A DNA stretch of 64,000 nucleotides, taken from NCBI GenBank assembly GCA_035549195.1, contig DASZRK010000002.1:231655-295654 (forward strand), given 5' to 3'. The position numbers and the translations under genes were made by a program. Shown piece after piece: positions 1,501 to 26,730 of the stretch (its first letter is position 1; each line of letters begins with the position of its first letter). The stretch is from a bacterium (GTDB taxonomy: Bacteria; Oederibacteriota; Muellerivitia; Muellerivitales; Muellerivitaceae). The notes beneath the pieces were generated by a model that saw nothing but the letters and a program-made list of their open reading frames with translations, made no database searches and had not been told where the DNA came from.

Positions 1501-4500
1501 TCAACGCAAAATGAGGATTTTTCCTACTGTTTTTCCAGTAGGGGTCTTGACCACCACGTAATAGAGCCCGCTGGCCAGGGGGCTCCCCCACTGGTCCATG
1601 GGATCAAGCTTCACTAAGGACCCCGGGGTCATATTGTGGATGTTCTTCTCGGCCACTAAGCGGAAGGCGGTGGTAAAGACCCGCACTTGGACATCGGTAG
1701 GAGCGTTCAGGGGAACGGCGACCTGGATGGGTTGGGTCCCGTCCGAAGGGTTGGGATAAACGACCGGCTTGGACCAGGTCGGAGTGGCGGTAGGGATGCC
1801 ACCGACCGTCACTTCCGCCCCGTCGTAGGGGATCCCCGTGGCCGTTCCGCTCCCCGAGCCCGTGGTGACGACGACCCCGGTCAGGGATGTCTGATAGGTC
1901 CCCGAAGGAGCGCTGGATGAGATATCCAGGACGATCAAGAGGTCTTGGGTCGCCGATCCGGGTAGGACGTCGCTGAGACCGACCGTAAGGGTCCCATCAT
2001 TGGCCGGGTAGGTCCCACTGGCTAAAAGGCTGTCGCCTCCATCCACGATCCCGTTCCCGTTGCTATCCAGGTAGACCTTGACCGAGGTGATTCCGGTCTG
2101 GTCGTTGCCCGTTCCGGAAGCCGTCAAGGAGATCTGTCCCACCGTCGTAGGACCGCCGGTCAGGTTCTGGAGCTGGACCTGCATCACCGGGACCTGCGGG
2201 GCGCCAGGAGCCTGGTTCGAATCCGGAGGCGCCGCCGGTCCAGCGGAAACCTGGAGGACCGGACCGGTCGTCGGGGTATTTGTCGGGGTTTGGGTCTTGG
2301 TCGGGCTGGAGGTCGGCGAAGGCGAATTCGTGGCCGTGGCCGTCAGCGTCGGTGTCAAGGTCCGGGTCGCGGTGGGACTGTGGGTGGGCGTGGCGGTGGG
2401 GGCCGGAGGGGTCAAGGTCCCCGTAGGGCTATCGGTCGGCGTCCCCGTCGGGGAGGCCGTGGGGGTCAAGGTCGCCGAAAAAGTCGCCGTCGAGGTCAGG
2501 CTGGCCGTCGGACTTGCGCTGGGCGTCGCGGATGGGGTGGCTGTCGGCGAGAAGGTCGGGGTCGAGGTGGGGGTACGGGTCGGACTGGAGGTGGCCGAAG
2601 GGGTCGGTGTGGGCGTCGGGCTCGAGGCGCAGGTCACCGGCGCCACATCGGGCGGGAGCGAACCCAACCGGCTTTGCAACTGGGCGTCGAAAAGCGACGG
2701 CGGGTCCAGGTTGGCCCGGTCGATCCCCTCATAGGCCACGTTCCCCCGCGGGCCCACTTGAGGCGCGTTCCCGCTCATGACCGTTCCATAAACGTAGGTC
2801 GCGGTCAGGTCCTGGGAATTGTCATAAATGGTGGCTCCCCCGGTGGGGCCGATGATGAGGGCATCCGAATCCGAGGTGTAGGTGGCCGGGGAACATTGCA
2901 CCGACCCCGCCTGCCAGTTGCCATAGGGATTGGCCGAGGTTCCCGAGTAGTTCCACACCACCCCGCCCGCGAAGGTCTCATAGGCATTGTTGCTTTGGGT
3001 CTCCCGGTTCTCGGCCAGGAGCCCGTTATTGGTCTGGGTCATCATGTCCCACAGGAGCCTTTGCGAATAGGCGAAATGGGTATCGTCGCATTCCATGGTC
3101 ACGCTGGCCGAATTCCCCATGGTCTTGATGGAGTTGCAGCGTGTGTAGACCACCATGTTGGTCATGGCGTATTCGGTGGTGAAGTTATGGCGCAGGTTCG
3201 TGGCCGTACAGCGTTTGAAGAGCACCGCCGAAGAGGCGTAGGTGTAGAACCCGTAGCCCCAACCCCCGCCGCCATAGTCCTGGGCCCCGGTGATGGAACA
3301 ATCCAGGACGGTGATTCGGGTGGACCAGGCGGGTTTGATGCCGTTCTTGGCGACATTGAGGACCTTCACGTCCCGGGCCCAACCGTTGAAGACGCCCTTG
3401 AAGGCCAAGGCGGTCCCCGCCGGGCGGCCCGAATCGTTGCTGTTGGCCAGGACCTGGATCGTCATCCCTTCGATGCCGTCGTTCTCGATGTATTGGCCCC
3501 CGTTGGGCTTGTAGAACCAGACCGTGGCGTCGCTGTTGTGCAGGCTGAAGGGGATGGGCGCGTCCAGGGTGATGACGTTGCCCGCGATGGCCGTGATCTT
3601 GCGCGGATAGCAGAGGGTGTTGCTGAAGGCCCCATCGGTGCCGGTACCCGGCGGGTCCGTGGTCCAGTTGCCGGCGCTGTTGATCGTGGAAAAATTGGGC
3701 CAGAAATACTGCTGGACCACCACCCAGTTCCCCACCGCGAAGGAAGCGGCGGAACCCACCGTGACGGACAGGTCCCCCCGGTTCACGTCGGCGCAGCTGG
3801 TCGTGACCGGCGCCTTGCCCGGCTCCGCCCATTGGCTGTAGGAGATCCCGCCGCCGCCCATGAAGGTGAAGGGCGCCTCGGTGAGCTTGTCCCCCGGGTT
3901 ATAGGAGGAGGCGATCACCACCGTGGTGGCCCCGCTTCCCGCTCCCAGGATGCGGATATTCCCGCCGGTGATGGTGACGGTCCCCGAAAGGGTCACGGAG
4001 CCGGAAGGGAGCCAAAGGGTGCCGCCGCCCATCCCCACCAGTGTGGAAAGCCCGGTCCTGACCGCGGTCGTAATGTCCCCCGAGGACGAGACGGTCACGT
4101 TGTTGCAGGGGATGGCGTCCCCCAACCCGACTTGGGAGAGCTTGTAACCACTGTAGGAATAATCATCCAGCTTGAAGGGCCGTCCACCCAAGGTCACGCT
4201 CTGGGCCACCCAGTTGGGCCCGCTGGGTTGCAGGAAGACCGAGTTCCAGGCCCCCAAGGGCGTGGGCGTGATCGTGGGCGAGTTGGTCGGACTGGGGGAA
4301 GGGGTGGCGGTGAAGGACGCGGTCGGTGTCGTCGAAGCCGTCGGACTGGAGGTAGGGCTCGAAGTGGGGCTGTTGGTCGGGCTCAGGGTGGGGGTCCAGG
4401 TGGGCGTCGCCGTGGGGCTGTTGGAGGGGGTCGGCGTGGCCGTGGAGCACCCCATGAAAAGGCGGAGGTTGTCCAGGTAGAAGGTGCCCGTGACCGTGCC

Positions 4501-6996
4501 AGGCCCGGAGTTATAAACGAACTCGAGGGCCGTGATGGAAGAGCCCTGGGTGATGCCGCCCGCCGCCCAATTGATGTTGAAGGTCACATCGTTGTTCTGC
4601 CCCGCTACCAGGGTCGGGGTGTCGCCCGAGATGGGCTGGTAGAAAGTGGTCGGCGAATCGGCGCGCAGGAACAATTGGGTCCACCCTTGGCCCGCGGTCA
4701 AGGAGGAGGATACGTTGATGTCCAACTTCAGTTGGGTGACGCTGGTCCAGTCATTGGGGGTGAATCCGGTCAGGTTGAAGAGCTGATCGTTCCAACTGGC
4801 GCCGGTGGTCACGTTCACCTGCAGGCTGTGGGTCCCTTGGGTGGCATTCAATGTGGTCACAGCCCGGGAAGCGTTGGTCCCCGACCAGGTCCCGTTCTCC
4901 GCCAGGGTCTCGGCCCCGTTCAAGAGGACCACGCAAACGGTGGCCGTGGGGCTGGGAGTGGCTGTGGGGGTCAGGGTGGCCGTGGAACTGGGGGTCGGCG
5001 TAGCGGTGGCGAGGGTGCCCGTGGGAGTGGCCGTCGGCGTGGCGGTGGGGGATGTATTCACCGCGAAGGCCGAGAGCAGGAACTGGTATTTGCCCTGGTA
5101 TCCCTGGTCGGGCTCGGTGACCTCCCAGGAATCCTCGGGCCATGTGTTCCCCCAATCCTTATAGGACTTCATGGGCGGTTGGCCCTGCGGCGGGTTGAGG
5201 GTCGGTCCCGAATAGGAGGCGTCGGGCGCGAAGTTCTGGTTGGGTCCTCCCGCCAGGATCCCCGGCGCCGGCCCCACCGCCCCGCCACCCGTGTTCCCGT
5301 CGAAGGTCGTCCCTTGGTAGAACCAACTGTGGTAGATGGACATGATCGATTTGGAGGCCCCCAGGTTGGCACCCTGGGTCCCCATGTTGGTCAGATAGAC
5401 CCAGTTCAAGGGGTTTCGGCCATGGAAATAATGGAGGTACTCCTCCGCTTGGTTCGCGTAAGCCGTGTTCTGGGCCGGGTTGGCATTGGTCTTCACGGCG
5501 AAAAGGAGTTGGTTGCCCCAGGAAGCCTTCAACTGGTTGGAGCCCCAGGTGTAATGCCCCGGGTACATGTAGCCCAAGTAGGGATCGTTCACCTGCTGGT
5601 TCATGATGTAGTTCTGGCATTCGTTCTTCAGGGAGTTCTTGATGGCCGTCACCACCGCGGCCGTCGCCCCCGGGGCCAGGCAATAGGACACCATCCCCAA
5701 TTCCAGCGGCTCGCAAAGGGACGCGTCGAAATGGTCGGCCCCTGCGTTGGGCGGATTGGAGACCGGCCGGAAAGAGCTTTCAATGACCGCTGAGGAGTTG
5801 TAATTGGCGTCGAAATAGGTCTGGTAGGTGGCGCTCCCGGTCAGGGCGAAAAGTTCGGCGGCGGCGGCCACCCGGGCCTGGGCGTCCCAGGCCGAGGATT
5901 GGTTGGCGTTGGCGCTGGAAACCCCGGTGGAATCGAAGGTGACCGGCGAGGGATTGGCGGAAAGATAGCCCCAAGCCGAGACCGCGGCGTTCTGCAGTGT
6001 CACCGCGTAGGAGCTATAGAGCGGATAGGCCTGGAAGAGCCGCGCCCCCAGGGCAAAGGCCATGGCCCCGGTGGCGGTGGCGGTGGTGGAGACGTTCAGG
6101 TAGTAGCGCTTGGCGGTGTCGTTGGCCGGGTTCCCCGGGTTGTTGGAGGTGCTCGCGTTGCTGTAACCCACCATCGAATAAAGGGCCCCGTCGCTGGAGC
6201 GCTGCATGCGCAGCATCCAGTCCAGTTCATATTTGACCTCGTCCAGCATGTCGGGCACCCCGTTGCCCGATTCGGGGATGTTGGTGTTGTCCCCATAGCC
6301 GTTGGGGTACCACTCCGCCGAATGCATCAGGTACCAAAGGGTCGCGTGGGCGAAGGTCACATATTTCCCATAATCCCCCGCGTCATGCCAGCCGCCATGC
6401 ACATCCCGGGCCGTGCCCGCCCCTTGGTCGGCGTTCGCATTCCAGAGGTGGGCGACCAGGTCCTGATTGGCTCCCTCATGGCAGGCGGTATGGTTCCAGT
6501 TCGCCCCTCCATTGGCCGAGGAGATATTCATCCCGCAACGCTGATAGAAGAACATCCGCTGGGAAGCCGTGACCACCCCGTTATAGACGCTGTCCAAAAC
6601 TTGGAAATTGTAGGATTGCCCGCCGGGATTGGAGCCGCCGGGCACCTGCACGTAATAGGTCCCGGGCGCGCTCAAGGTGGTGAATGTTCCCTGCCACACC
6701 TTATCGCCGGAAAAGGTGCTGTCCGTGGCGCCCGCGCCCCAGGTCACCGCGCTCCCGGTGAAGACCGTGGCCCCATTGGAGACATTGATGACGTTGAAGG
6801 TGGCGCCCGCGCCCAGGTTGAAGCTCGAAGGGCTCCCGACTCCGGTGTTGGGCTGGGCGAAGATGACGATCTTTGGATCGGCGGGCTTGTAGCCGAACTG
6901 GTCCACGATGATGTTCGACAGGACCGCTCCATGGACCGGCCCTAGGGCCGAAGCGAACAGGAGAAAGATCCCAAAACGTTTCAAGTCAGGACGCAA
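1501..6996 (-). CDS. Giant secreted multi-domain glycoside hydrolase: N-terminal Ig-like (CelD_N) + GH9 catalytic domain, CBM4/9/22-like beta-sandwich, right-handed beta-helix (pectate-lyase-like) domain, beta-sandwich domain, T9SS-type CTD
   Basis: 1831 aa with a signal peptide. GH9 motifs: IIVDQFGYKPADPK (Ig-like N-domain), GGWHDAGDYGKYV, PDMLDEVKYELDWMLRMQ, YFHGRNPLNWVYL, and C-terminal ..TEPDQGYQGKYQFLL carrying the catalytic Glu. Three TPT/SPT linkers. A beta-helix-like segment (NGWARDVKVLNVAKNG..). C-terminus [11 protein letters not shown]...[10 protein letters not shown]...GKILILR. Confidence 0.85.
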   Translation of the reverse strand: MRPDLKRFGIFLLFASALGPVHGAVLSNIIVDQFGYKPADPKIVIFAQPNTGVGSPSSFNLGAGATFNVINVSNGATVFTGSAVTWGAGATDSTFSGDKVWQGTFTTLSAPGTYYVQVPGGSNPGGQSYNFQVLDSVYNGVVTASQRMFFYQRCGMNISSANGGANWNHTACHEGANQDLVAHLWNANADQGAGTARDVHGGWHDAGDYGKYVTFAHATLWYLMHSAEWYPNGYGDNTNIPESGNGVPDMLDEVKYELDWMLRMQRSSDGALYSMVGYSNASTSNNPGNPANDTAKRYYLNVSTTATATGAMAFALGARLFQAYPLYSSYAVTLQNAAVSAWGYLSANPSPVTFDSTGVSSANANQSSAWDAQARVAAAAELFALTGSATYQTYFDANYNSSAVIESSFRPVSNPPNAGADHFDASLCEPLELGMVSYCLAPGATAAVVTAIKNSLKNECQNYIMNQQVNDPYLGYMYPGHYTWGSNQLKASWGNQLLFAVKTNANPAQNTAYANQAEEYLHYFHGRNPLNWVYLTNMGTQGANLGASKSIMSIYHSWFYQGTTFDGNTGGGAVGPAPGILAGGPNQNFAPDASYSGPTLNPPQGQPPMKSYKDWGNTWPEDSWEVTEPDQGYQGKYQFLLSAFAVNTSPTATPTATPTGTLATATPTPSSTATLTPTATPSPTATVCVVLLNGAETLAENGTWSGTNASRAVTTLNATQGTHSLQVNVTTGASWNDQLFNLTGFTPNDWTSVTQLKLDINVSSSLTAGQGWTQLFLRADSPTTFYQPISGDTPTLVAGQNNDVTFNINWAAGGITQGSSITALEFVYNSGPGTVTGTFYLDNLRLFMGCSTATPTPSNSPTATPTWTPTLSPTNSPTSSPTSSPTASTTPTASFTATPSPSPTNSPTITPTPLGAWNSVFLQPSGPNWVAQSVTLGGRPFKLDDYSYSGYKLSQVGLGDAIPCNNVTVSSSGDITTAVRTGLSTLVGMGGGTLWLPSGSVTLSGTVTITGGNIRILGAGSGATTVVIASSYNPGDKLTEAPFTFMGGGGISYSQWAEPGKAPVTTSCADVNRGDLSVTVGSAASFAVGNWVVVQQYFWPNFSTINSAGNWTTDPPGTGTDGAFSNTLCYPRKITAIAGNVITLDAPIPFSLHNSDATVWFYKPNGGQYIENDGIEGMTIQVLANSNDSGRPAGTALAFKGVFNGWARDVKVLNVAKNGIKPAWSTRITVLDCSITGAQDYGGGGWGYGFYTYASSAVLFKRCTATNLRHNFTTEYAMTNMVVYTRCNSIKTMGNSASVTMECDDTHFAYSQRLLWDMMTQTNNGLLAENRETQSNNAYETFAGGVVWNYSGTSANPYGNWQAGSVQCSPATYTSDSDALIIGPTGGATIYDNSQDLTATYVYGTVMSGNAPQVGPRGNVAYEGIDRANLDPPSLFDAQLQSRLGSLPPDVAPVTCASSPTPTPTPSATSSPTRTPTSTPTFSPTATPSATPSASPTASLTSTATFSATLTPTASPTGTPTDSPTGTLTPPAPTATPTHSPTATRTLTPTLTATATNSPSPTSSPTKTQTPTNTPTTGPVLQVSAGPAAPPDSNQAPGAPQVPVMQVQLQNLTGGPTTVGQISLTASGTGNDQTGITSVKVYLDSNGNGIVDGGDSLLASGTYPANDGTLTVGLSDVLPGSATQDLLIVLDISSSAPSGTYQTSLTGVVVTTGSGSGTATGIPYDGAEVTVGGIPTATPTWSKPVVYPNPSDGTQPIQVAVPLNAPTDVQVRVFTTAFRLVAEKNIHNMTPGSLVKLDPMDQWGSPLASGLYYVVVKTPTGKTVGKILILR

Positions 6997-7049: not shown

Positions 7050-7092
7050 CCGGCAAAAAAAAGCCGACCCGTGAAGGCCGGCTTTTATTTTA
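7050..7092 (-). terminator. Putative intrinsic terminator downstream of the GH8 gene (A-run, GC hairpin, T-run)
   Basis: Minus-strand RNA reads aaaauaaaaGCCGgccuucacggguCGGCuuuuuuuu directly after the GH8 stop at 7090. A 4-5 bp GC stem is followed by U8. The A-tract on the other side suggests bidirectional potential. Confidence 0.4.
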
Positions 7093-10000
7093 TCGGAGGA
7101 CCAGGATCTTCCCGACGGATTTCCCGCTCTTGGTGTAAACGACCACGTAATAAAGGCCGCTGGCCAACGGCGTTCCCCAATCGTCACGCATCTGAACGGT
7201 CAAGGGCCCATAGGCCTGATCGGTGTAATCCTGTTCCTGAACCTTCCGGAAGGCCGTGGTGAAGATCTGGACCTTGACGTCCGACGTGCCCGTGAAAGGA
7301 GGTGGCAGGACCTGGACCGGTCCTCCGTCGGAGGGGTTGGGATAGACGATCGGCTTGTTCTCCTTGAAAGGCGTGGGGGTGGCCGTGGCCGTCGGGGTAA
7401 AGGACGAGGTCGGAGTGAAGGAAGCCGTCGGGGTCGAAGTCGGTGCGACCACGGTGATGGTCGCTCCGCTCAAAGGCAGGGGATTGAAACTGGCGGCCTG
7501 TCCGTTGGTGCCGGAGGCGCCCGTCAGGCTGAAGGAATAACCACCGGTCGTGGAGGTCCCGGAGAAATTCACCTGGAAGGTATAGGTCACCGAACCGCCA
7601 CCCAAGGGAATGACGTCGGAAAGTCCGCTGAAGGTGGCCGTCGAACCGCTGAATCCGACCGGTGAACCATCCGGCGAACCATTCTTGAGCAGGGTCACCG
7701 AAAGAATATTGGAGGTCGGGTTCCCCGTCTCGGTGAGGGTCAGGCTGGTCATGGTCACATTGGTCGTACTGGGATTGGTCAACACGACCTCGATCACCGG
7801 TACATTGGAAGCCCCTTGCAGTTGATTGCCGCTGGGTGCGCCCGAACCGTTCGCCACTGCCACGATGACCGGCGTCGCCGTGAAGGTGGGGGTAACGGTC
7901 GGTGTATTCGTGGGTGTAAAGGTGGAAGTCGGGGTGTGGGTGGCGGTATTGGTCGCGGTGTTGGCCAAGGTATTGGTGGACGTGGAAGTGGCGGTCCGGC
8001 TGGCCGTCGCTGTCGGGGTGTTCGTCGCGGTATTGGTCGCCGTATTGATCAGGGTATTGGTGGCCGTGAAGGTGGCGGTGCCGGTGGCCGTTGAGGAAGC
8101 TGTGCCCGTCGCTGTGTTAGTGGCCGTATTGACCAAAGTCGCGGTGGGAGTGCCCGAAGCTGTCCGGGTGGCGGTATTGGTCGCCGTGCTCGCTAAAGTA
8201 TCGGTGGGGGTCTGGGTCGGTGTCTTGGTGGCGGTAAGGGTCGCAGTGGAGGTATTGCTGTTCGTGGCGGTCGAGGTTGCCGTATTCGTGGTGGTAAGGG
8301 TGGGAGTAAGGGAAGGCGTCGGCGTCATGGAGGGGCTCAAGGTCCCGGTCGGACTGAGGGTCGGGGTCGATGTAATGGTGGGGGTTCCCGTATCCGTGGC
8401 GGTCGAAGAAGGCGTGCGGGTCGCCGTTTGGGTGGCGCTATTGGTCGTCGTGGAAGTGGCGGTCCTGGTCGCCGTGTTGGTGGAGGTGTTCGCCAGGGTC
8501 GCCGTCGGGGTCAGGGTCGGGGTGAAGCTAGGCGTGGCGGTCAAGGTGGCCGTGGCCGTCCGGGTAGGCGTGGAGCTGGAGGTCGGTGTCCCACTATGAG
8601 TGGCCGTGTTGGTCGGTGTGCCGGTGTTGGCAAGGGTGGCGGTCGGAGTGGATGAGGGGGTGCTCGTGGAGGTGTAGGTATTCGTCCGGGTCGCCGTATT
8701 GGTCGGCGAACTGGTGGACGTCAAGGTGGGGGTATTGCTGGGGGTGGTGGTGGCGGTCCGGGTCGCCGTATTGGTGGCCGTGCTGGCGACCGTGTTGGTC
8801 GGGCTATTGGTCGGGCTGAAAGTGGGGGTCCGCGTGGGTGTGGCCGTGACGGTCGAAGTGGCGGTATTAGTGACGGTGCGGGTCGGTGTGTCGGTGGGCA
8901 CAATGGTCACCACCGGCGTGCTGGTCGGAAGAGGCGTGGGAGTGTTCCAGCCCATTCCAGCCAGACAGACCTGGTCGACCCAGAAAGCGAAGGTGACGCC
9001 CGACACGGGGGCCTGGGCCACCCATTGGAGGGAAGTAACATGGGTCATCGCCTGGGCATAGCTCAGAGTAGTACCCATGGCCGAAGCAGGGCCCCAACTT
9101 TCCGGAGCAAGTCCGGCCGCGAGCGATCCAGGCTGGGTGACATATTGCCATGTGTTGGCTGAAGTAATTGGAATCATGAAGCCATATTGATTGGCGTTCC
9201 CACCATTCGATGGGTCAACGGCGGGGTTATAAAAATTCAGCCGAACGGTCTGGGGCGCGGAGGTAGCCTTGATATAAAAGGCGATGTTGGTCATGGAGGT
9301 CGGTGCACTGGCGAGATTCTGATAACCCGTGGTCAATTCGGTGGCCAGGGAATAACCGGCATAGACCGTTTCGGGCTGTGTCAAGCCGCCATAGTAAACG
9401 TTGGTCGAGCCGCCGTTGATGGCGCAGGAACCGGTCACATAGGCCGAGTAGGCCGGGCCCGTGGTGGCCCCGCCGACATAAACGATCGTGGAGGGTCCGG
9501 AGAAGGTGTAAAGCTGGGGCGTCGCGACCGGCGTGTTGTTCACACTGGCGTAACCAAAGGTGAACCAATAACCGTTCACCCGGTTCATGCTGTTCCCATC
9601 CTCCACGTCGTCGAGCATATAGCAGGCCAAGGGCGTGGGCGAAGGGGTCGGAGTGCAGGTCTGGGCCCCGCAAGGAGGCGTGCCGCACACGATGTTGGGG
9701 AAATTCCCCGTGGCCACCAGTTGGGCGAGGAAGCAGACCGAGTCTTGGAAATAGGTCCAGGAACCACAGGTAGGGTAACGGCTCATCATGGTGCTGTAGA
9801 TGTTGTTGATGTAGGACTGGTTCGTCGCGTTGTTCGCAAGGGAGAGGGAGGCCACCAATACGCCCCCGATCTGCAGATCATTACAATTGGACCCTGACGG
9901 CGAGCCGTAAGGGGTGGAATTGACCGTCCAGAACTCCTCGATCTCATTGGCGCCATTGACCCCGACCCCGGCCTGTACCGTGGTGGCGAACTTGGTCACG

Positions 10001-10929
10001 ATGGAAGCGCCGGCGCTTTTGTTCCAAAGCCAGTCGATACCGATACGCAAAGGATAGCGGGAGGCGTCATAGCCCATCTCCAGGGCCGGACGGCCGGAGT
10101 TGGTGGTCGCGTTCAGGCTGGAATCGACCTGATTGGGCATGAAGCCCAGTTGAGAATATTTATTGTAGACCGTGGGCAGGAATGTCCCGTAGATCCAGTT
10201 GTTGGGAATGTTCCAGTTATGGCCCTGGGCGTCGTAGGCGTTCCAGCAGCTGAACCAAGCCGGTTCCATGTAGCTGGAGTAAAGGGGATATTGGTAGGCG
10301 TCCCCCGAGTAGATGGTTCCGGTACCCACCTCGTAACTCCAAATGGCGTTGATCATGTTCTGCCATTGGGCCTTGTAATTAATCGCCCCGCCCGATCCCC
10401 ATATCTTGTCGGCCATGAGCAGGGCCATGGCCATGTCCTCGTCCGCGTCGGTAGCGCCGTTGGCACCCTTGATGCCGCCGTTGTTGTCCAGATTCCAATC
10501 CATCACATAATGATTGCTGGAGTCGGGCATCCATTGCACGGCGTATTTCCACAATCCATCGAACAGGGTCTTGTCGTTCATCATGACGGCGATGAGCATC
10601 CCATAGCCGATACCCTCGGAGACCGTATCGTTTCCCACGTCGGGCCGCTGGACGCGAAGGGCTCCCGCCAAGGTCCCGCCCCCGCGCTTGGTCCCGCTGC
10701 TGGTCACGTAGTGCGTGTACCAGCCGATGTAATTGGTCGAGACCGCCGCATTCATCGTGGCGTTCGGGCCGCCATTGGGGAGATAGACCCCACCATAGGA
10801 ATTGTTGTGGGGAAAGGTGACCGACCCGCCGCCGGAATTGACCGCCTGGGCGTTCAAGACCGAGACCGAAAGGACGAATAAGAGGATCGAAGCGGTTAAA
10901 TTTTTGAAGTGGCTGAAAAACGATTTCAT
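7090..10929 (-). CDS. Secreted GH8 glycoside hydrolase (endoglucanase/xylanase/chitosanase family) + CBM-like domain + ~380-aa Thr/Ser/Pro/Asn low-complexity linker + beta-sandwich domain + T9SS-type CTD
   Basis: Signal peptide [29 protein letters not shown]. Exact GH8 PROSITE-type signature [20 protein letters not shown], plus [11 protein letters not shown]. The C-terminal module ([21 protein letters not shown]..) is followed by [21 protein letters not shown]...[33 protein letters not shown] sits 5 nt upstream of the ATG. Confidence 0.85.
7800..8940 (-). repeat. Low-complexity Thr/Ser/Pro/Ala/Asn-rich linker-coding tract (ACN/CCN codon repeats) inside the GH8 gene
   Basis: Protein segment [27 protein letters not shown]... 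is about 380 aa long. The antisense strand gives the spurious VGV/VAV-rich ORFs 7826..8599 and 8699..9061. Similar tracts occur at ~1..540, 2080..2730, 4170..4480, 4800..5160, 11800..13150, 15200..16050, 19130..20110 and 22190..22310. Confidence 0.7.
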
Positions 10930-11098: not shown

Positions 11099-14000
11099 TC
11101 AGCGCAGGATCAATAGTTTCCCCACTGACCGGCCGCTCTTGGTCTGGACCGCAACATAGTAGAGGCCGCTGGCCAAGGGCGTCCCCCAGGCATCCCTTAA
11201 TTCCAGGGTCACGGGTCCATAGGTCAGGTTCGAATAAGCATCTTCCCTCACCTTCCGGAAAGCCGTCGTGAAGATCTGCACCCTCACATCCGAGGTCCCG
11301 GTGTAGGGCGGAGGCAGGACCTGCACCGGCCCGCCGTTGGAAGGGTTCGGGTAGAGGACCGGTTTGTTCTCCTGGAATGGCGTCGGGGTCGAGGTGGCCG
11401 TTGGGGTGAAGGAGGAAGTGGGCGTGAAGGAAGCGGTCGGTGTCGCCGTTGCGACCACCACAGTGATGGTCGCTCCGGACAAGGGCAACGGGCTGAAATT
11501 GACCGCTTGGCCGTTGGTGCCGGACGCGCCCGTCAGGTTGAAGGAATAACCTCCGACGGCGGCCGTCCCGGAAAAGTTCACCTGGAAGGTATAGGTCACC
11601 GAGCCGCCGCCCGAGGGAACGATATCGCTCAGGCCGCTGAAGGAGGCCACGGAGCCGCTGAACCCCACCGGTGAACCTTCCGGCACACCGTTCTTCAAAA
11701 GGGTCACCGACAGGATGTTCGCCGCGGGGTTCCCCGTTTCGCTCAAGATCAGGCTTGTCAGGGTCACGTTGGTCCCGCTGGGATTGGTCAGCACCGATCC
11801 TTCCACGGGCACATTGGAAGCCCCTTGCAATTGGTTCCCGCTGGGAGCGCCTCCTCCCAAGGAGACCTGGACGGTCACAGCCGTCGGGGTAAAGGTCGGA
11901 GTGATCGTCGGCGTGAAACTACGGGTCGGGGTCCAGCTGTGGGTGGCGGTGAAGGAATTCGTCGGGCTGGGAGTGGCCGTTCGCGTAGCTGTGGCGGTGG
12001 CCGTATTGGTCGCGGTGTTGACCAGGGTGTTCGTGGGGGTATCGGTGGCGGTGTGTGTCCGGGTCGGAGTGGCGGTTGCCGTATAAGTGGCGGTGGGGGT
12101 CGTTGTGGCTGTCCGCGTGGCGGTCCGGGTCGGAGTGCCGGAAGGAGTGGGAGTCCCGGTCCAGGTGGGAGTATGGGTCGGGATCAAGGTACCCGTCGGG
12201 CTGTCCGTTGGGGTCGGGGTGATCGTAGGCGTTCCCGTGGCGGTCGAAGTGGCCGTGGAAGTTGTGGTCGAAGTGAGCGTGGATGTGCGCGTGGGGGTCG
12301 CTGTCGGACTGTTCGTGAGGGTCGAGGTGAAAGTGGCGGTGTTGGCCAGGGTCGCGGTGGGAGTGCGGCTGGGCGTGGAGGTCGGGGTGGCCGTCGGTGT
12401 ATTGACCGCCGTGTTGGTCGAAGTGGCCGTAGCCGTCCGGGTCGCGCTTTGGGTGGCCGTGGAGGTGGCGGAAGCAGTGGACGTGGAGGTCGTGGTCCGG
12501 GTCGGGGTGCCTGTGGGTGTAGGGGTCCCGGTACGCGTGGGCGTATCCGTCGGGATCAAGGTTCCCGTGGGACTGTCCGTAGGGGTCGGGGTGATCGTGG
12601 GGGTCCCCGTAGGGCTCGGGGTCCAGGTCGCCGTCCGGGTCGCCGTGTTCGTGGCCGTCGGGGTGGCCGTGGAAGTGACCGTGCGGGTCGCAGTGGAACT
12701 AGGCGTATTCGTCACGGTGGAAGTAGGGGTATTGGTCCTTGTCAGGGTGGCGGTAGGGGTAAGGGTCGGGGTGGAGGAAGCGGTGGCTGTTGCGGTCAAG
12801 GAAGGCGTGAAGCTGTTGGTGAAGGTCCGGGTCGGCGTGTTGGAAACCGTGGAGGTGGGGCTGTTGGTGCGGGTGGCGGTGTTCGTGGGCGTATCGCTGG
12901 GAGTGGCGGTGGGGCTGTTGGTCCGGGTGGGCGTGTTGGTGGGAGTCCCGGTCGAGGTATTGGAAGCCGTGGAGGTGGGGCTGTTCGTGCGGGTGGCGGT
13001 GTTCGTGGGCGTATCGCTGGGAGTGGCGGTAGGGCTGTTGGTCCGGGTGGACGTGTTGGTGGGAGTACCGGTCGAGGTATTGGTCCGGGTCGGGCTCGAG
13101 GTCGCCGTCGAGGTCGGAGTGAAGGTCGGCGTGTAGGTCCTGGTCGCGGTCGAGGTGGGCGTATTCGTGGGCGCGCAGACCACAGTGATGGCGATGGTAT
13201 TGCTGGTCACCGGCCCTCCGCCCGACCATTGGGCTATCCCACGATCGCTGACGACCTGGCAGGCATCACCGGCGGTATAGCTGTAGGACCCCACGATGAA
13301 GGTGATCGGCACACAGCTCCCGCCTGGCAGATTGCTCACCACCCAGCTCAAATTGGGGTAGGTCGTTCCTGTCGGGTTGATGGAAACCGGTGTACCCGAT
13401 ACGGTCACGGTCCAAGGACTATAGCCGGGTCCTTGGAAGGCCCACGACAGGGGATTGGTGATGTTGTCGGTCACGGTGACCGAATTGGCCGTGACCGAAC
13501 CGGATGAATTGCAGACATTCAAGACCATGGTGATGGGGGCGGCGTCCGAATAGCCCGAGGTCGGGCCGCCGGTGGTCTTCGTGAGGGTGATGTTGGGAGG
13601 GACCGTGGTGGGGGTGGCGGTGGCCGTACGGGTGGGCGTGCTGGTGGGCACCGGCGAACTGCCCGAGCAGGTCGGGGCGACGGTGGCCAATTGGTTCACG
13701 ACCGGCTGCCCATGCCAGGAGTTCAACGAGGAAGGCAGGGCCGAGAGCATGGCCGGGCAGGCGCCGTTGTGCCAGGACCAGGCGGTCCAGGAATAGACGT
13801 AACTGCGGTTGTTGCTCCCGTTGGCGAAGGTGAAGAGGGCGTTGTCGAAAGTGCCGCTGTCGTTGTTGCAGTTGGGCCCCGAGGGGTCGGGCCCGAACTC
13901 CCCGATGAAGACCGGATGGTTTGCCGCCGCGATGGTGGTCTCGGTATCCCAATTGGAGGAGTTGTCCGTCCCGTTGCCCTTGTGCCCGTAGATGTGCACA

Positions 14001-14761
14001 TCGTAGGCGAACCCATTGCCCGCGTTGGTGAAGGGATAGGAATCGATGGACCGCAGGTCATAGGCCCAGTCCAACCCGCCGATGAAGATGATGTTGTTGG
14101 CCCCGGTCCCACGGATGGCGTTGATGAGGGCCTGGTGGCCCGGGGTCGTGAAGCCCTGGGTGGTGTTCCCGCCGCTCTGCCAAACGGACCAGGAGACGCT
14201 CTTGGGTTCGTTATAAAGGCCGAAGAAGACCGCGGGGTTGTTCTTATAACGGTTGGCCACGTTGGTCCAGAAGGTCACCGCGTTGGCGTCGGGCATATCC
14301 TGCTGGCCGGTGGCCGTGCCCCAGCCGCTCCCGCAAGGGGCGGAGGCGGTGCTGGAGGTCCCCGACCAATGCAGGTCGATGATGACATAGGCGTTGGCGC
14401 CCGAGCAGTAATTGACGATGTTGTCCACGATGGTCTGGTAGGAGGAGGCGCTGCCCCCTTGGCAGCCGAACCATCGGTCCTGGTTCACGGGCAGACGGAT
14501 GATGTTGGCCTTGTAGGTCCCGACCGCGGCCTGGACCGAGGAAAGGGGCGGCCCCTCACCGGTGTTGCTCCATTCCAAACTGGGAACGTTAACGCCGCGT
14601 AAACGGACCGAACAGCCGCTGGAGGTCTGGAAGTGGTTGCCCGAAACAAAAAGGTCCGGCGGCGCGGCCAAGGCGCTTGAGGACAAAAGGAAGGCAAAAA
14701 GAAGGACGCCTTGCCTGAACCGGTTCAATGGTCTCTTTTGGAATTTCATTTCCGTACGCAC
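11099..14761 (-). CDS. Secreted GH5 glycoside hydrolase (cellulase family A) + DUF11-like conserved-repeat domain + long Thr/Pro linker + beta-sandwich domain + T9SS-type CTD
   Basis: GH5 motifs: IIRLPV, VFFGLYNEPKS (acid/base NEP) and VFIGEFGPD (nucleophile GEFG). Mid-domain ITLTKTTGGPTSGYSDAAPITMVLNVCNSSGSVTANSVTVTDNITN is DUF11-like. The C-terminal cassette is ~85% identical to that of the GH8 at 7090 and ends KPVLYPNPSNGG...[25 protein letters not shown]. Confidence 0.8.
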   Translation of the reverse strand: MRTEMKFQKRPLNRFRQGVLLFAFLLSSSALAAPPDLFVSGNHFQTSSGCSVRLRGVNVPSLEWSNTGEGPPLSSVQAAVGTYKANIIRLPVNQDRWFGCQGGSASSYQTIVDNIVNYCSGANAYVIIDLHWSGTSSTASAPCGSGWGTATGQQDMPDANAVTFWTNVANRYKNNPAVFFGLYNEPKSVSWSVWQSGGNTTQGFTTPGHQALINAIRGTGANNIIFIGGLDWAYDLRSIDSYPFTNAGNGFAYDVHIYGHKGNGTDNSSNWDTETTIAAANHPVFIGEFGPDPSGPNCNNDSGTFDNALFTFANGSNNRSYVYSWTAWSWHNGACPAMLSALPSSLNSWHGQPVVNQLATVAPTCSGSSPVPTSTPTRTATATPTTVPPNITLTKTTGGPTSGYSDAAPITMVLNVCNSSGSVTANSVTVTDNITNPLSWAFQGPGYSPWTVTVSGTPVSINPTGTTYPNLSWVVSNLPGGSCVPITFIVGSYSYTAGDACQVVSDRGIAQWSGGGPVTSNTIAITVVCAPTNTPTSTATRTYTPTFTPTSTATSSPTRTNTSTGTPTNTSTRTNSPTATPSDTPTNTATRTNSPTSTASNTSTGTPTNTPTRTNSPTATPSDTPTNTATRTNSPTSTVSNTPTRTFTNSFTPSLTATATASSTPTLTPTATLTRTNTPTSTVTNTPSSTATRTVTSTATPTATNTATRTATWTPSPTGTPTITPTPTDSPTGTLIPTDTPTRTGTPTPTGTPTRTTTSTSTASATSTATQSATRTATATSTNTAVNTPTATPTSTPSRTPTATLANTATFTSTLTNSPTATPTRTSTLTSTTTSTATSTATGTPTITPTPTDSPTGTLIPTHTPTWTGTPTPSGTPTRTATRTATTTPTATYTATATPTRTHTATDTPTNTLVNTATNTATATATRTATPSPTNSFTATHSWTPTRSFTPTITPTFTPTAVTVQVSLGGGAPSGNQLQGASNVPVEGSVLTNPSGTNVTLTSLILSETGNPAANILSVTLLKNGVPEGSPVGFSGSVASFSGLSDIVPSGGGSVTYTFQVNFSGTAAVGGYSFNLTGASGTNGQAVNFSPLPLSGATITVVVATATPTASFTPTSSFTPTATSTPTPFQENKPVLYPNPSNGGPVQVLPPPYTGTSDVRVQIFTTAFRKVREDAYSNLTYGPVTLELRDAWGTPLASGLYYVAVQTKSGRSVGKLLILR

Positions 14762-14942: not shown

Positions 14943-17819
14943 TCAGCGAAGCACTAATAACTTCAACGTCCAATGACGTCCCCCACCGGAAAGGACCAGG
15001 TAGTAAAGGCCGTTCGCGAAAACTTTTCCTTGTGGGTCGGTCAGGAGCAAGGGAATGGATTGCCCCGCCACGCTCAAGGTCAGGTGGATGTCCTCCACCT
15101 TCCGGAAAGCCAATGTAAAAACTTCGATCCGCAGGTCTTTCCCCGCCGAGCCAGGCGAAAGGAGGGTCACTTGCTCCCCTGTTTGCACCGGGTTCGGATA
15201 GAGCAGGGGTTTGTCCGTCGCCAAGGGGGTCAGGGTCGGACTCAGGGGCGGCGTTGTGGAAGAAGGGGTGGCGGAGGATGTCGTGGTCGGGGTGGCCGTG
15301 GGGGTCAACGTCGAGGCCGGGATGGAAGTGGCGCTGGCGGTCCAAGTCGGGGTCGCCGTCCCCGTAAAGGTCGGCGTCAAGGTACGCGTTACGGTGAAGG
15401 TGGCCGTGGTGGTTGCGGTCACCGTGAAGGTACGCGTAGCGGTCGGGGTAGTGGTGGCCGTCCCTGTGGAAGTTCCTGTTGAAGTAGGGGTGGCGGTCGG
15501 CGGCAAGGTCCCCGTGGGCGAAAGGGTCCGAGTGGCGGTAACGGTCGGGGTCGCCGATGCGGTCGCACTGGGTGTGGTCGTCGAGGTGGAGGTAGCCGTT
15601 CGGGTCGGACTGAAGGTTCCGGTCGCCGTCCAGGTGGCGGTACCGGTCGGAGTGGCGGAAGGAGGGGCCGTGGGGGTGAAGCTGGTCGTGGAAGTGGCCG
15701 AAGGGGTCGTGGTGGGGCTCGGGGTGAAGGTCCCTGTCGAGGTCATCGAGGCGCTTGGGGTGGGCGAATAGGTTCCCGTGGGGGTCCAACTGACCGTGGC
15801 CGTCGCGGAAGCCGTGGCTGTCCGGCTGGCGGTGAGGGTCGCCGTGGACGACGGGGTCGAGCTGGGGGTAACGGTGGCCGTCCGGCTAGCCGTCAGGGTC
15901 GGCGTCGCCGACATCGAACTGGTCGGTGTGGAACTGGCCGTGCGGGTAGGGGTCGGCGAGATCGTGGGGGTGGGCGTATAGCTCCCCACCGTCGGGGTCG
16001 GCGTGGCGGTCGGGGGCTTGGGGGTATTGGTGGGGGTCGCCGTCCAAGGGGTGGTCGGGGTGGGGGTGGGCAGGTTCGCGATACGAATGACCTGGATGGC
16101 GTTCACTTGCGAGGTATCGGCGGTCGAACTGAACGACAGGTCCAACTGGCCGCTCGAGACCAGTACCGTCACGGTCCGGTCATAGGCCGTGTGTTCCCCT
16201 CCGGCCGCGCTATAGACGTCCAAACCGCTGATCTCCGGTTGGCCTTGGGCCGTCAGGCTAAAGACCCGCCCCCCCGGGTGGGCATTGGGGTCGTAGTTCT
16301 CGCAGAACTTCAAGGTCACCTGGTAATAGCCCGTGGGCACGGTGAAATGATAGATGGGATTGCCCCAGCGCTCGGTCTGGTAGAGGGTCTGCTGGTTGTT
16401 GACCGTATTGGAGATGGTCTGGCCGCTGTAGGTCGAGGTGCTCCCCGAGGTGGTGGTGTCATAACCCCAACTCCCCGCCGAGAAAACCTTGTCGGCGGCC
16501 CAGGTGGCCCCCGCGCTGTCCACGAACTGGGGCCCCCCTGCGTTCACCCGGATCGTGAGCGGGGCATAAGCGGAAAGGGTCGGGGTGGGGGTCGGCGTCC
16601 CATAGAGGTTGTAGTCGAGGAAATTCCCGGAAAGCATCAGCAGCGACATCACCGTCCAGGATTCGTCGTAATAGGTGCCCCCCACCAGCAATTTCGATCC
16701 CACCAGGTCGTTGTAGGTATCGTCCATATAGGCCTGGTAGTTGCGGCTCACCATCCCCCCCACCCCGGCGGGTCCCACAAAGGCCGCCGATTGGAACCCA
16801 GGGTTCTGGGAAACGGTCAAGGTGGGCAATTGGGCGTCCGGGGTTCCGTTCAAGTGGTAGCCATCCACGATGGAGACGGCCCCGATGGCGGAGAAGAAAT
16901 TGCTGGTCTTGGTGGCATAGGTCTCCGCCGCCGAATTCCCGAACCAGAGGTAATCCTGCACCATGCGGAAGGGCGTGCGGCAGGCGTCGTATTGGTAGTC
17001 GGTGTAGGCTGACCCCACCGAGTTCTGGGAAACCCCCGCGCTGTTGCACCAGGCCGAGACCAGGCCGTTGGTGGCATTGCCATAGCCCTGGGCGAGGTTG
17101 TTGTTGAGGATGGTGTAACAACTGGCGGCGATATTGAGCCAACCCGGTTGACCTGTGGCGGTGGCGAATTCCCGGAAATAGGCGGGCGCGAAATAGGAGG
17201 GATTGATGGCCCCGAACCCGTCCCCCGCGGTGACGATCTGCCCCGCGCTGTTCATATAGGAATAGAGCTTTCCGATCTGGGTGACCGCCAGGCTCTGATA
17301 GCTGGCCCCCAAGGACCCGCTCCCGCCCCATTGGCGGGCGGCCATGAGCAGGGCCCAGGCCATGTCCTCGTCCCCGTCAGTGGCGGCGCCGCTTCCGGCG
17401 GTCCCGCCCGAGGCATCGATGTACCAGTTCATCAGGCCGCTGCCGTCCAGGTGCAATTGCTCGTACTTCCAGAGCTTATCGAAGAGGTTCTGGTCGTTCA
17501 TATAAACGGCGATGAGCATGCCGTAACCGATGCCTTCCGACACGGTGGAATTGAGGGCCAGCCCCGAGTCGTTGGGCCGCTGCACCCGTAGGAACCCGCC
17601 CGCGCCCGTCGAGGTCACGCAGTCGGCGTACCACTTGTTGTAGGCGGCGAGGATGTCGGCGTTGTTATAGATGGAGGAATGGAACCCATAAGGATTGTCC
17701 CGGTTCTGGGGGAAGGGGAAGTTGCCCGTGGTGCCGTTCACACTTTGCGCGTTCATTGAACCGGTCCAACAAATGGACACAAGGAAGGCACAGAGGAATT
17801 GGGGGAGCCGGACCTTCAA
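14943..17819 (-). CDS. Secreted GH8 glycoside hydrolase + malectin/CBM57-like domain + Thr/Pro/Ser linker + T9SS-type CTD
   Basis: Signal peptide MKVRLPQFLCAFLVSICWTGSMNAQS. Exact GH8 signature ATDGDEDMAWALLMAARQWG, plus [11 protein letters not shown]. Malectin-like segment IRVNAGGPQFVDSAGATWAADKVF...LYQTERWG...RVFSL...LDLSF. CTD KPLLYPNPVQTGEQV...NGLYYLVLSGGGRHWTLKLLVLR. Confidence 0.85.
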   Translation of the reverse strand: MKVRLPQFLCAFLVSICWTGSMNAQSVNGTTGNFPFPQNRDNPYGFHSSIYNNADILAAYNKWYADCVTSTGAGGFLRVQRPNDSGLALNSTVSEGIGYGMLIAVYMNDQNLFDKLWKYEQLHLDGSGLMNWYIDASGGTAGSGAATDGDEDMAWALLMAARQWGGSGSLGASYQSLAVTQIGKLYSYMNSAGQIVTAGDGFGAINPSYFAPAYFREFATATGQPGWLNIAASCYTILNNNLAQGYGNATNGLVSAWCNSAGVSQNSVGSAYTDYQYDACRTPFRMVQDYLWFGNSAAETYATKTSNFFSAIGAVSIVDGYHLNGTPDAQLPTLTVSQNPGFQSAAFVGPAGVGGMVSRNYQAYMDDTYNDLVGSKLLVGGTYYDESWTVMSLLMLSGNFLDYNLYGTPTPTPTLSAYAPLTIRVNAGGPQFVDSAGATWAADKVFSAGSWGYDTTTSGSTSTYSGQTISNTVNNQQTLYQTERWGNPIYHFTVPTGYYQVTLKFCENYDPNAHPGGRVFSLTAQGQPEISGLDVYSAAGGEHTAYDRTVTVLVSSGQLDLSFSSTADTSQVNAIQVIRIANLPTPTPTTPWTATPTNTPKPPTATPTPTVGSYTPTPTISPTPTRTASSTPTSSMSATPTLTASRTATVTPSSTPSSTATLTASRTATASATATVSWTPTGTYSPTPSASMTSTGTFTPSPTTTPSATSTTSFTPTAPPSATPTGTATWTATGTFSPTRTATSTSTTTPSATASATPTVTATRTLSPTGTLPPTATPTSTGTSTGTATTTPTATRTFTVTATTTATFTVTRTLTPTFTGTATPTWTASATSIPASTLTPTATPTTTSSATPSSTTPPLSPTLTPLATDKPLLYPNPVQTGEQVTLLSPGSAGKDLRIEVFTLAFRKVEDIHLTLSVAGQSIPLLLTDPQGKVFANGLYYLVLSGGGRHWTLKLLVLR

Positions 17820-24011: not shown

Positions 24012-24338
24012 GGGATAAAAACTATATCATCGACCGGCCAAGCCACGCTATAGACCCATTAGGACCTGTCGCTTATTGGCTATACATTGCCACATAATTT
24101 GAAAAAAACCGAAACATAAATCGCATTAGGACCATTCATCGCTACGCCTATCGGAATTGCCGACCGGACCACATCCCCCAAAAAGTTTCCCAAACTATCC
24201 AACTCTTCGAGAGTGATCCTGTGCCGAAGTTGGTCGCATTGTCCGTCTCCGTTTCCGGCCCTTCATTGATTAATACGATTCGACCCGTGACCAAAAATCT
24301 CCACTCGGGCATTCCCATGAAATCACTTCCAATAAGCA

Positions 24339-25541: not shown

Positions 25542-25616
25542 AGCACCAACTTCGATAAGGATCACCCGGTCATCCAGAGCATCTTATCAAAGTGCCATGT
25601 TTATTTTGACCCAGGC

Positions 25617-26507: not shown

Positions 26508-26730
26508 ACGCCCTCCTTAGGTTCGAGTGGAAGCACTATCGATCCCCCGGAAAAGCCTTTCAAGCGGGCCTTGGATTAAACCGTTTCCCCTTAGTAACCC
26601 GCTTTCGGTTGAGGGACGGCGGGACGGCGTGCGATAATCCCCTGCGGTGTCCTTTGCCCGTTCATTGAACGGGTTCACTGCGTCCGGACGGTTTCACGTT
26701 TGATTTCGGATCTTGATCTTGGGGAAACGA

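Follow-up and report, generated by a model that had tools for sequence, protein, structure and literature searches.

A GH9 module joined to a right-handed beta-helix resembling phage K1 capsule lyases: a putative two-headed carbohydrate-active enzyme

The window, a stretch of 64,000 nucleotides from contig DASZRK010000002.1, contains a long gene in which a cellulase-type domain shares one chain with a beta-helix, and the question raised by this locus is what the beta-helix does. The earlier note had described the product as a GH9 enzyme fused to a pectate-lyase-like helix, possibly a bifunctional glycanase. Translation, Pfam searches and AlphaFold2 models bore out a single ORF of 1831 aa carrying both a GH9 module and a right-handed beta-helix. 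The ORF uses a TTG start, and its stop codon lies at 1501−1503. From the N- to the C-terminus, the order of modules is signal peptide, Ig-like CelD_N domain, GH9, CBM-like sandwich, right-handed beta-helix, sandwich and T9SS-like CTD, with Pro/Thr linkers at about aa 648−686, 851−913 and 1458−1577. The features are as follows:

1501..6996, minus strand: whole gene for a multimodular, predicted secreted carbohydrate-active enzyme (ORF and translation, 1831 aa)
6928..6996, minus strand: signal peptide, aa 1−23 (M/LRPDLKRFGIFLLFASALGPVHG, with predicted cleavage before AV), read by eye from the sequence
6637..6918, minus strand: CelD_N Ig-like domain, aa 27−120 (PF02927, E 4.2e-13)
5080..6585, minus strand: GH9 catalytic module, aa 138−639 (PF00759, E 2.2e-53)
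4447..4938, minus strand: CBM-like beta-sandwich, aa 687−850, between linkers at nt 4939−5055 and 4258−4446
2626..4257, minus strand: right-handed beta-helix, a K1-lyase-like putative polysaccharide lyase module, aa 914−1457
1762..2265, minus strand: second beta-sandwich or Ig-like module, aa 1578−1745, after a long Pro/Thr linker (nt 2266−2625)
1504..1761, minus strand: C-terminal sorting domain, T9SS type-A-like, aa 1746−1831 (near-threshold profile matches)

The predicted signal peptide has a basic n-region, a hydrophobic core and a VHG-A cleavage-like site. At the other end, the CTD scored just below the T9SS cut-offs (TIGR04183, 22.7 bits vs 23; PF18962, 22.7 vs 27) and gave 24.4 bits to FlgD_ig; the same domain ends each of seven consecutive proteins of the window. 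The second sandwich returned no family match in a Pfam search, and it is kept in the relative P0001/L001 (E 2.5e-54) and more weakly in L004. The protein is best regarded as probably secreted and targeted to the surface or the medium, from a candidate division FCPU426 bacterium. This uncultured phylum has already been tied to cellulose degradation (PMC7031533).

The N-terminal half was readily classified. The CelD_N domain scored 50.3 bits against a Pfam cut-off of 24.6, and the GH9 module 182.6 bits against 27.7 over profile positions 1−442 of 444. The GH9 motif HDAGDYGKY occupies aa 203−211 (nt 6364−6390), and the motif quoted in the earlier note, GGWHDAGDYGKY, was located at aa 201−212. The best solved relatives were the endoglucanases 3X17 (metagenomic, E 3e-58) and Clostridium thermocellum CelD (1CLC, E 3e-42), which likewise combine CelD_N with a GH9 module containing the DAGD motif. 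Compared with solved GH9 structures, the C-terminal third of the module is divergent; the candidate acid, Glu624 in WEVTE (aa 623−627), was assigned by inspection, as the alignment to solved GH9s stops near aa 540. GH9 xanthanases cut xanthan, an acidic decorated beta-1,4-glucan, alongside lyases (PMC11002231, PMC10881899); these carry CBM84 and no lyase module, whereas the GH9 of the window is tied to a putative one. For the sandwich that follows, previously called CBM4/9/22-like, the CBM-like fold class stood, while the particular families did not, the only match being a sub-threshold one to the galactose-binding-like Mann_GBD_bact (E 0.004, full length, profile 8−143 of 143). This module is kept in L054, and its C-terminal end is visible in L001.

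The beta-helix measures 544 aa rather than the approximately 480 first estimated. AlphaFold2 models reached pLDDT 79 and pTM 0.89 with a 12-sequence MSA, and pLDDT 88.9 and pTM 0.94 with a 25-sequence MSA. Both depict a three-stranded right-handed helix of the pectin-lyase fold, in agreement with the parallel beta-helix proposed from the letters. The models were then compared with solved folds by Foldseek, as the earlier note had suggested with PL1, PL9, GH28 and GH55 in mind, and the nearest structures proved to be capsule lyases, not pectinases. In both runs, the best 13 PDB matches (E 2e-13 to 2e-9) were to the K1-specific depolymerase S2-4, LKA1 gp49, the K1 lyase 7W1C, phi297 gp61 and AP22 gp54. 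GH28, GH110, GH87 and AlgE matched 5−6 orders of magnitude worse than the capsule lyases. The TM-scores of the fold matches were low (≤0.46). Searched on its own, the domain sequence matched nothing among the PDB sequences, and no solved structure was matched by the family core; a core-only HMMER profile returned from the PDB chance-level GH20 helix-bundle matches, which were rejected.

The link to the K1 lyases was established by one decisive comparison, that of family with family. When 25 family members were aligned by hhalign to six K1-lyase homologues, the probability was 98.3% (E 2.6e-14, 321 columns). In addition, the HMMER family profile matched 9K4A in its central region (profile positions 169−426, E 6.8e-9), and Pfam K1-lyase_Rider matches members of the family. 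The similarity is borne mostly by this rider subdomain, the core alone giving an hhalign probability of 31.6% in unchanged register. Against a single K1-lyase sequence, hhalign gave a weak 56%, in the rider region only, and single-sequence comparisons placed the core in a register that differs from that of the family-versus-family alignment. Two features within the helix follow from this analysis:

3502..3816, minus strand: inserted rider-like subdomain, about aa 1061−1165 (VGNWVVVQQYFWP ... LDAPIP), aligned to K1 lyase residues of about 140−240
2950..3282, minus strand: predicted active-site core, aa 1239−1349, from conservation and the K1-lyase alignment

The core comprises Gln1239, Tyr1248 within GGGGWG-Tyr-GF, Arg1269-His1270, Asp1304-Asp1305-Thr-His1307, Asp1317, Arg1331 and Trp1348-Asn1349. 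Across 130 domain sequences, representatives clustered at 50% identity, every one of these residues is at least 85% conserved and most are at least 95% conserved. By hhalign, Tyr1248, Arg1269-His1270 and Asp1305-x-His1307 (Y335, R356-H357 and D392-T-H394 in domain numbering) align on K1 lyase Tyr311, Arg333-His334 and Asp371-Thr-His373. The Tyr, Arg-His and Asp-x-His positions are 95−100% conserved in the 130 sequences, with Tyr1248 and His1307 each present in 129, and they are invariant in the phage family. Arg1331 (127/130) lies 24 residues past the His, as in the K1 lyase, and aligns two residues off R397, in a loop that is the least confident part of the first AlphaFold2 model. The K1 lyase contains a single copy of the pattern Y-x(19-24)-RH-x(33-39)-DxH-x(21-26)-R, at exactly 311−397; the pattern turned up in 6 of 20000 shuffles. 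Mutagenesis of that enzyme showed Y311, H373 and R397 to be essential, and its activity is insensitive to EDTA; the motifs hold the Tyr, His and Arg that drive metal-independent beta-elimination at glucuronic acid (PMC8822698).

The module shares with Klebsiella phage NTUH-K2044-K1-1 ORF34 (7W1C) and K64-1 S2-4 (9K4A) a right-handed beta-helix with an inserted rider, and the GW(G)YG, RH and D-T-H motifs, followed by a candidate R motif, in equal order and spacing, at an identity of only about 13−15%. It differs in lacking the particle-binding N-terminal domain and the C-terminal tailspike domain, and in having one more helix coil, a Gly-rich GGGG loop ahead of the Tyr, its own N-terminal DFSYAGY region and a C-terminal SLFxxQLxxRL helix (weak DUF4955 match). 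Unlike the phage tailspike lyases, it sits within a multimodular enzyme secreted by a cell, and it shows no sign of trimerisation.

On these grounds, the interpretation we favour, and hold to be reasonably likely, is that the protein has two catalytic heads, one a beta-1,4-glucanase and the other a uronate lyase that works without a metal. The GH9 head would hydrolyse beta-1,4-glucan chains. The beta-helix head would be a homologue of the K1 capsule lyase of the Klebsiella phage and itself a polysaccharide lyase. It would break its substrate at O4 of a uronic acid, glucuronic acid being the likeliest, through a beta-elimination that needs no metal. Tyr1248 would serve as base and His1307 as acid, and the carboxylate would be neutralised by Arg1331, possibly together with Arg1269. 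Tethered in this way, the lyase could strip away or cleave a decorated polymer or an acidic matrix, with the GH9 acting on the neutral beta-1,4 backbone beside it. Since the beta-helix family is related to phage lyases that cut capsules, the enzyme probably acts on two distinct polysaccharides simultaneously.

The beta-helix belongs to a large family. A word-indexed protein search recovered only 11 relatives and a broader profile added little, whereas the exhaustive HMM search yielded 7503 cluster representatives at E≤1e-3, and 742 at the stricter E≤1e-30. In the sources queried, the family had no name, no curated model, no solved structure and no paper of its own: the clusters are named only ‘hypothetical protein’, a literature search on DUF4955 returned no paper, and the DepoCatalog paper contained nothing on classification. 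Fusions to PL7, PL6 and GH115_C were found in the wider family, and at one locus two tandem family members accompany a pair of GH88 genes and a heparinase II/III-like lyase. The genes around P0004 and P0009 gave no further clue, and the contigs with P0100 and P0069 were too short to be informative. Family members also gave repeated weak matches (E 1e-8 to 6e-12) to the model of the PL29 hyaluronan/chondroitin endo-lyase BT_3328 of Bacteroides thetaiotaomicron, over about 170−300 model positions and at 34−45 bits vs a cut-off of 1100. The match ends ahead of the conserved core, and a faint C-terminal DUF4955-type match exists besides. Membership of PL29 was rejected for the window protein (NCBIfam NF058554, 33.8 bits vs 1100, partial model coverage). 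As a whole, this context (the PL7, PL6 and GH115_C fusions, the GH88 locus and the weak PL29 match) leans towards a uronate lyase.

Some observations point against a lyase. The partners in the closest subfamily are GH9, GH18 and DUF4434, with one locus containing GH94, CE4 and GH42, and in the window the gene run is GH9-lyase-like, GH8, GH5, GH8; both the closest partners and these neighbours would act on neutral polymers. GH88, GH105 or uronate-catabolism genes were not seen within the window. Asp1305 and Asp1317 (Asp392 and Asp404 in domain numbering) are 95−98% conserved and could equally serve a hydrolase. The beta-helix might accordingly be a glycoside hydrolase in which Asp1305, together with Asp1317 (or Glu1340), supplies the acid and base; its fold is common to many beta-helix tailspikes and to GH28, GH55, GH87 and GH110 enzymes. 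The substrate would then be a neutral polymer found alongside cellulose or chitin, for instance a beta-1,3-glucan, an alpha-1,3-glucan or some other glycan of the wall. We regard both this role and these substrates as rather unlikely. The specific relatives are lyases, and within the family no residues are better conserved than those matching the proven Tyr and His; the NTD/DD/GHG/RIK motifs of GH28 type are absent from the module, hydrolase structures match its N-terminal cap only, and the wider family has the uronate-linked fusions and neighbours described above.

Less probable still is a non-catalytic role in binding, in adhesion or as a spacer, in which the helix would only place the GH9 at its substrate or at the cell surface. 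Adhesins do occur among beta-helix proteins, one of them, PfbA, being a fold match here, and the protein has further non-catalytic modules and long linkers. The earlier note had looked to the lack of a conserved catalytic constellation as the mark of a spacer or CBM, and the opposite was found: about 20 residues, polar or aromatic, reach a conservation of 95% or more in the 130 sequences and, in the AlphaFold2 models, stack where the first strand of successive coils begins. Given so strongly conserved a polar constellation, the beta-helix very probably serves as a second catalytic unit rather than as a spacer or CBM. Moreover, the module alone makes up many secreted proteins (P0002, P0003, P0005 and many more), and relatives themselves carry CBMs (CBM96 in 6/36; also CBM35, CBM6 and CBM9), for which reasons it would be expected to behave as an enzyme.

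A classical pectinase (PL1, PL3, PL9 or GH28), making the protein a cellulase-pectinase for plant walls, is doubtful in the extreme. Cellulose and pectin are both present in plant cell walls, and PF12708 (RGase A/epimerase-like) matches the N-terminal cap in most family members. The supposed affinity to PL1, PL9, GH28 and GH55 did not extend past this generic cap (PF12708-type, profile positions of about 66−163). In the window protein and 25 relatives, the only Pfam or NCBIfam profile matches of this kind were the PF12708 cap and the generic Beta_helix, the latter sub-threshold in the window domain, with no significant pectate-lyase or GH28 match. The catalytic motifs of PL1, PL3, PL9 and GH28 are absent; the conserved set is Tyr/His/Arg(+Asp) of K1-capsule-lyase type, as opposed to the Asp/Lys/Arg-Ca2+ set of pectate lyases. 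In Foldseek, pectinases ranked 5−6 orders of magnitude below the capsule lyases, and nothing in the sequence or structure comparisons was specific to pectin.

The fusion itself recurs. A GH9 and the beta-helix share one ORF in L004 (an FCPU426 MAG) and in the metagenome contigs L031, L032 and L054, of which L054 is co-linear with the window protein over 1422 aa at 39% identity. In L004, L031 and L032, the beta-helices are 82−83% identical and the joined GH9 only 29% identical. L001 shows the same CBM-linker-beta-helix junction, and elsewhere there is a 4-bp overlap between a GH9-GH18 gene and a free-standing family member. An assembly or gene-calling artefact, for which the repetitive Pro/Thr-linker DNA could in principle misjoin contigs and P0001 is called as a separate 930-aa gene, is refuted by the four independent assemblies with both modules in a single ORF, by the co-linearity of L054 and by the P0001 contig, which runs on through the linker and takes in the last part of the CBM-like sandwich. 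Judged from these sequences, the fusion is under selection, because L054 is co-linear, L004, L031 and L032 keep it with divergent GH9 modules, and the GH9-GH18 gene shows the 4-bp overlap.

It was fair to call the fusion uncommon, as GH9 occurred in 0/150 of the best family representatives. Precedents that join a cellulase to a lyase have been published, namely the GH5+PL31 enzyme CelAly of Aquimarina and PL14+GH9 enzymes, for which co-ordinate degradation of composite walls was experimentally demonstrated (PMC13235733); the concept is therefore uncommon rather than new. Like these, the window enzyme holds a beta-glucanase, a polysaccharide lyase (putative here), binding modules and flexible linkers in one chain, and the PL31 of CelAly is likewise a beta-helix. 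The precedents are marine, alginate-directed and of classified PL families, in contrast to the uncharacterised lyase-like family and the soil/peat candidate phylum host of the window enzyme.

More tentatively, the family may represent a very large, apparently unnamed group of cellular polysaccharide lyases of common stock with phage capsule and O-antigen lyases, in which the subfamily welded to GH9 and GH18, from MAGs of the soil candidate phyla FCPU426, Acidobacteriota and Spirochaetota, is directed at a polymer containing glucuronic acid. This polymer may have a beta-1,4 backbone of its own or be embedded with one; candidates may include bacterial exopolysaccharides similar to xanthan or acetan, beta-1,4-glucuronan and acidic glycans of fungal walls. 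If this holds, the run of GH9-lyase, GH8, GH5 and GH8 would be an exopolysaccharide- or necromass-degrading battery and not a plain cellulase cluster. The reading offers a testable Tyr/His/Arg beta-elimination hypothesis for a family of thousands of sequence clusters, would link cellular carbohydrate-active enzymes to phage depolymerases and may yield a new lyase specificity for biotechnology. The recurrent GH9/GH18/beta-helix fusions would serve as ‘Rosetta-stone’ evidence that some glycan abundant in the environment requires this module alongside a glucanase or a chitinase. Once that glycan is identified, soil carbon turnover would gain a further pathway, as would the known biology of an uncultured phylum.

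The ORF at 1501-6996 on the - strand was confirmed by the ORF list and translation as a single reading frame of 1831 aa. Its modules, separated by Pro/Thr-rich linkers, were as follows:

aa 27-120, - strand: CelD_N Ig-like domain (Pfam)
aa 138-639, - strand: full-length GH9 module (Pfam, E 2e-53)
aa 203-211, - strand: HDAGDYGKY motif inside the GH9 module
aa 687-850: module after GH9, with weak full-length similarity to a galactose-binding-like mannanase module (E 0.004)
aa 914-1457, - strand: beta-helix
last 86 residues: C-terminal domain, scoring slightly under T9SS sorting-domain thresholds

Among solved structures, the GH9 module was closest to the Ig-domain endoglucanases 3X17 (E 3e-58) and CelD. 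The module after it, which the earlier note had described as CBM4/9/22-like, is CBM-like by fold class only, the mannanase-module similarity being weak. A Pfam search of aa 1578-1745 returned no family match.

The GH9-beta-helix fusion of the window protein is genuine, as the earlier note had proposed. Gene calling treated P0001, the closest homologue at 91% identity, as a gene of its own, but on its contig the frame reads through a Pro/Thr linker to '...LGCSTPTP', the end of the CBM-like module. A 1703-aa protein from a candidate division FCPU426 MAG (L004:5898-11009) comprised CelD_N, GH9, beta-helix and C-terminal domain, lacking the CBM-like module, and the same arrangement was found on two metagenome contigs, L031 and L032. 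A further locus, L054, encoded a protein whose Ig-like, GH9, CBM-like and beta-helix modules followed the same order as in the window protein, the two being 39% identical along 1422 co-linear residues. Between the L004 and window proteins, the beta-helix was 82% identical but the GH9 module just 29%; the beta-helix is thus paired with more than one GH9 paralogue, and this uneven identity suggests module swapping via the Pro/Thr linkers. The window most likely comes from candidate division FCPU426 too, a clade that has been tied to the Goldbacteria and to cellulose degradation (PMC7031533).

Searched as a single sequence, the beta-helix had no match in the PDB. AlphaFold2 modelling of aa 914-1457, the course suggested in the earlier note, gave a confident right-handed beta-helix (pLDDT 79 and pTM 0.89 with 12 sequences; 88.9 and 0.94 with 25). 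Each of the two Foldseek runs ranked phage lyase tailspikes in the first 13 PDB places, namely K64-1 S2-4 (K1-specific), LKA1 gp49, the K1 capsule lyase 7W1C, phi297 gp61 and AP22 gp54. Pectinases and epimerases had E-values 5-6 orders of magnitude worse. Pectin, the substrate implied by the earlier comparison with pectate lyases, is not indicated. The family profile likewise matched 9K4A (K64-1 S2-4) over the central region (E 6.8e-9), all remaining PDB matches being limited to the N-terminal cap.

An exhaustive profile search recovered 7503 cluster representatives with E<=1e-3; 2966 of these passed E<=1e-10 and 742 passed E<=1e-30, and almost all were matched along the full length. The source names were 'hypothetical protein' only, and Pfam matches were limited to PF12708 for the generic N-terminal cap, the Beta_helix repeat model and, faintly, DUF4955 at the C-terminal end. 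Among 130 domain sequences, a group of polar residues showed 95-100% conservation, and the window protein retains all of them: Asp32, Tyr38, Arg219, Asp232, Tyr335, Arg356, His357, Asp392, His394, Asp404, Arg418, Trp435, Asn436 and Glu510 (domain numbering; +913 for the protein). In both models Tyr335, Arg356-His357 and Asp392-His394 lay at the start of the first strand in three successive coils, which would be the usual active-site location of beta-helix enzymes.

The K1 lyase catalyses an EDTA-insensitive beta-elimination at glucuronic acid, for which Tyr311, His373 and Arg397 are essential (PMC8822698). Its gene and five homologues (36-59% identical) were taken from phage genomes for comparison; their invariant motifs were GWYGVE, D.RH, FDTHD and DGFQ.R. 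Profile-profile alignment of the two families (98.3% probability, E 2.6e-14, 321 columns) paired Tyr335 with Tyr311, Arg356-His357 with Arg333-His334 and Asp392-Thr-His394 with Asp371-Thr-His373; Arg418 fell two residues off Arg397, within a loop. The core-only alignment kept the same register, weakly (31.6% probability). The beta-helix-family pattern, Y-x(19-24)-RH-x(33-39)-DxH-x(21-26)-R, matched the K1 lyase once, exactly at 311-397, and was found in 6 of 20000 shuffles. The beta-helix is likely a second catalytic head; the part of the earlier proposal that fell away was kinship with PL1, PL9, GH28 or GH55, the relatives being phage capsule lyases. Homology and conservation are the basis of every catalytic role proposed here for the window protein. 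A single phage-database entry carried cellular-type beta-helix sequence: MT835659.1 108-1613 (H1), from an unannotated human-faecal 'Bacteriophage sp.', was a full-length relative (23% identity, E 2e-12).

Within the window protein's subfamily, GH18 was also fused to the beta-helix (L012, L013, L015, P0022 and P0026). In FCPU426, Spirochaetia and unclassified MAGs, GH18 was N-terminal to the beta-helix at:

L015:7818-12857
L012:774-5627
L013:1-4077

P0020 carried GH18 plus DUF4434, and at the P0005 locus (JGI) a stand-alone beta-helix gene overlapped a 1440-aa CelD_N-GH9-GH18 gene by 4 bp. GH9, GH18 and the beta-helix are thus a recurrent trio. Directly upstream of a stand-alone FCPU426 homologue was a PilZ-domain gene (L002:4594-4962, L003:122-490; equivalent position in L005), which hints at a c-di-GMP or exopolysaccharide connection; a DeoC-like gene comes next.

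For the wider family, acidic substrates are favoured by the fusions, one locus and weak profile matches. CBM96, an alginate-specific module (PMC9971899), was present in 6 of 36 large members, and PL7, PL6, GH115_C, CBM35, CBM6, CBM9 and GH26 each on single members. The locus combined two tandem family members with a pair of GH88 genes, a GH2 and a heparinase II/III-like lyase. Matches to the NCBIfam PL29 hyaluronan-lyase model were weak (34-45 bits; cut-off 1100). The window protein's subfamily, by contrast, has GH9, GH18 and DUF4434 as partners and, at one locus, GH94, CE4 and GH42, and no uronate-catabolism genes were found in the 64-kb window. GH9 xanthanases, which attack an acidic beta-1,4-glucan together with lyases (PMC11002231, PMC10881899), are one precedent for a GH9/lyase-like pairing.

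The C-terminal domain (~90 aa, ending ...ASGLYY..GK.L.LR) also closes the next six large secreted proteins of the window, which are rich in Pro/Thr linkers:

7090-10929, - strand
11099-14761, - strand
14943-17819, - strand
18858-21845, - strand
21885-24011, - strand
26713-29115, + strand

These are GH8, GH5, GH8+malectin, two pro-kumamolisin (sedolisin-type) proteases and one 800-aa protein. Given the common domain, the region 1501-29115 looks like a co-sorted battery of secreted degradative enzymes. Acidobacterial (Bryobacteraceae) members of the family (P0007-P0010, P0012, P0016; loci L006-L009, L034-L048) ended in a TIGR03437-type domain, not a T9SS-like tail; apparently, one putative catalytic module has been joined to lineage-specific sorting or anchoring domains. 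At positions 24001-26000, which cover an NHL/beta-propeller protein (24339-25565) as well as an NmrA-like reductase (25617-26507), G+C falls to 0.51 from ~0.62 elsewhere; this segment could have been acquired. Three paralogous ORFs of 437-462 aa lie in tandem on the + strand (32503-33891, 33949-35286 and 35382-36695), where AT skew is strongly negative. They have hydrophobic N-termini, C-terminal tails that are almost the same (...Y(H/R)L(M/L)GERR(P/A)GS..) and no Pfam match.

Combining a cellulase with a lyase in one protein has documented precedents, GH5+PL31 and PL14+GH9 (PMC13235733), and is not new as a design principle. The novelty lies in what the lyase-like head is, in how large and nameless its family is, and in the fact that this head has been joined to GH9 and GH18 more than once in uncultured soil lineages.
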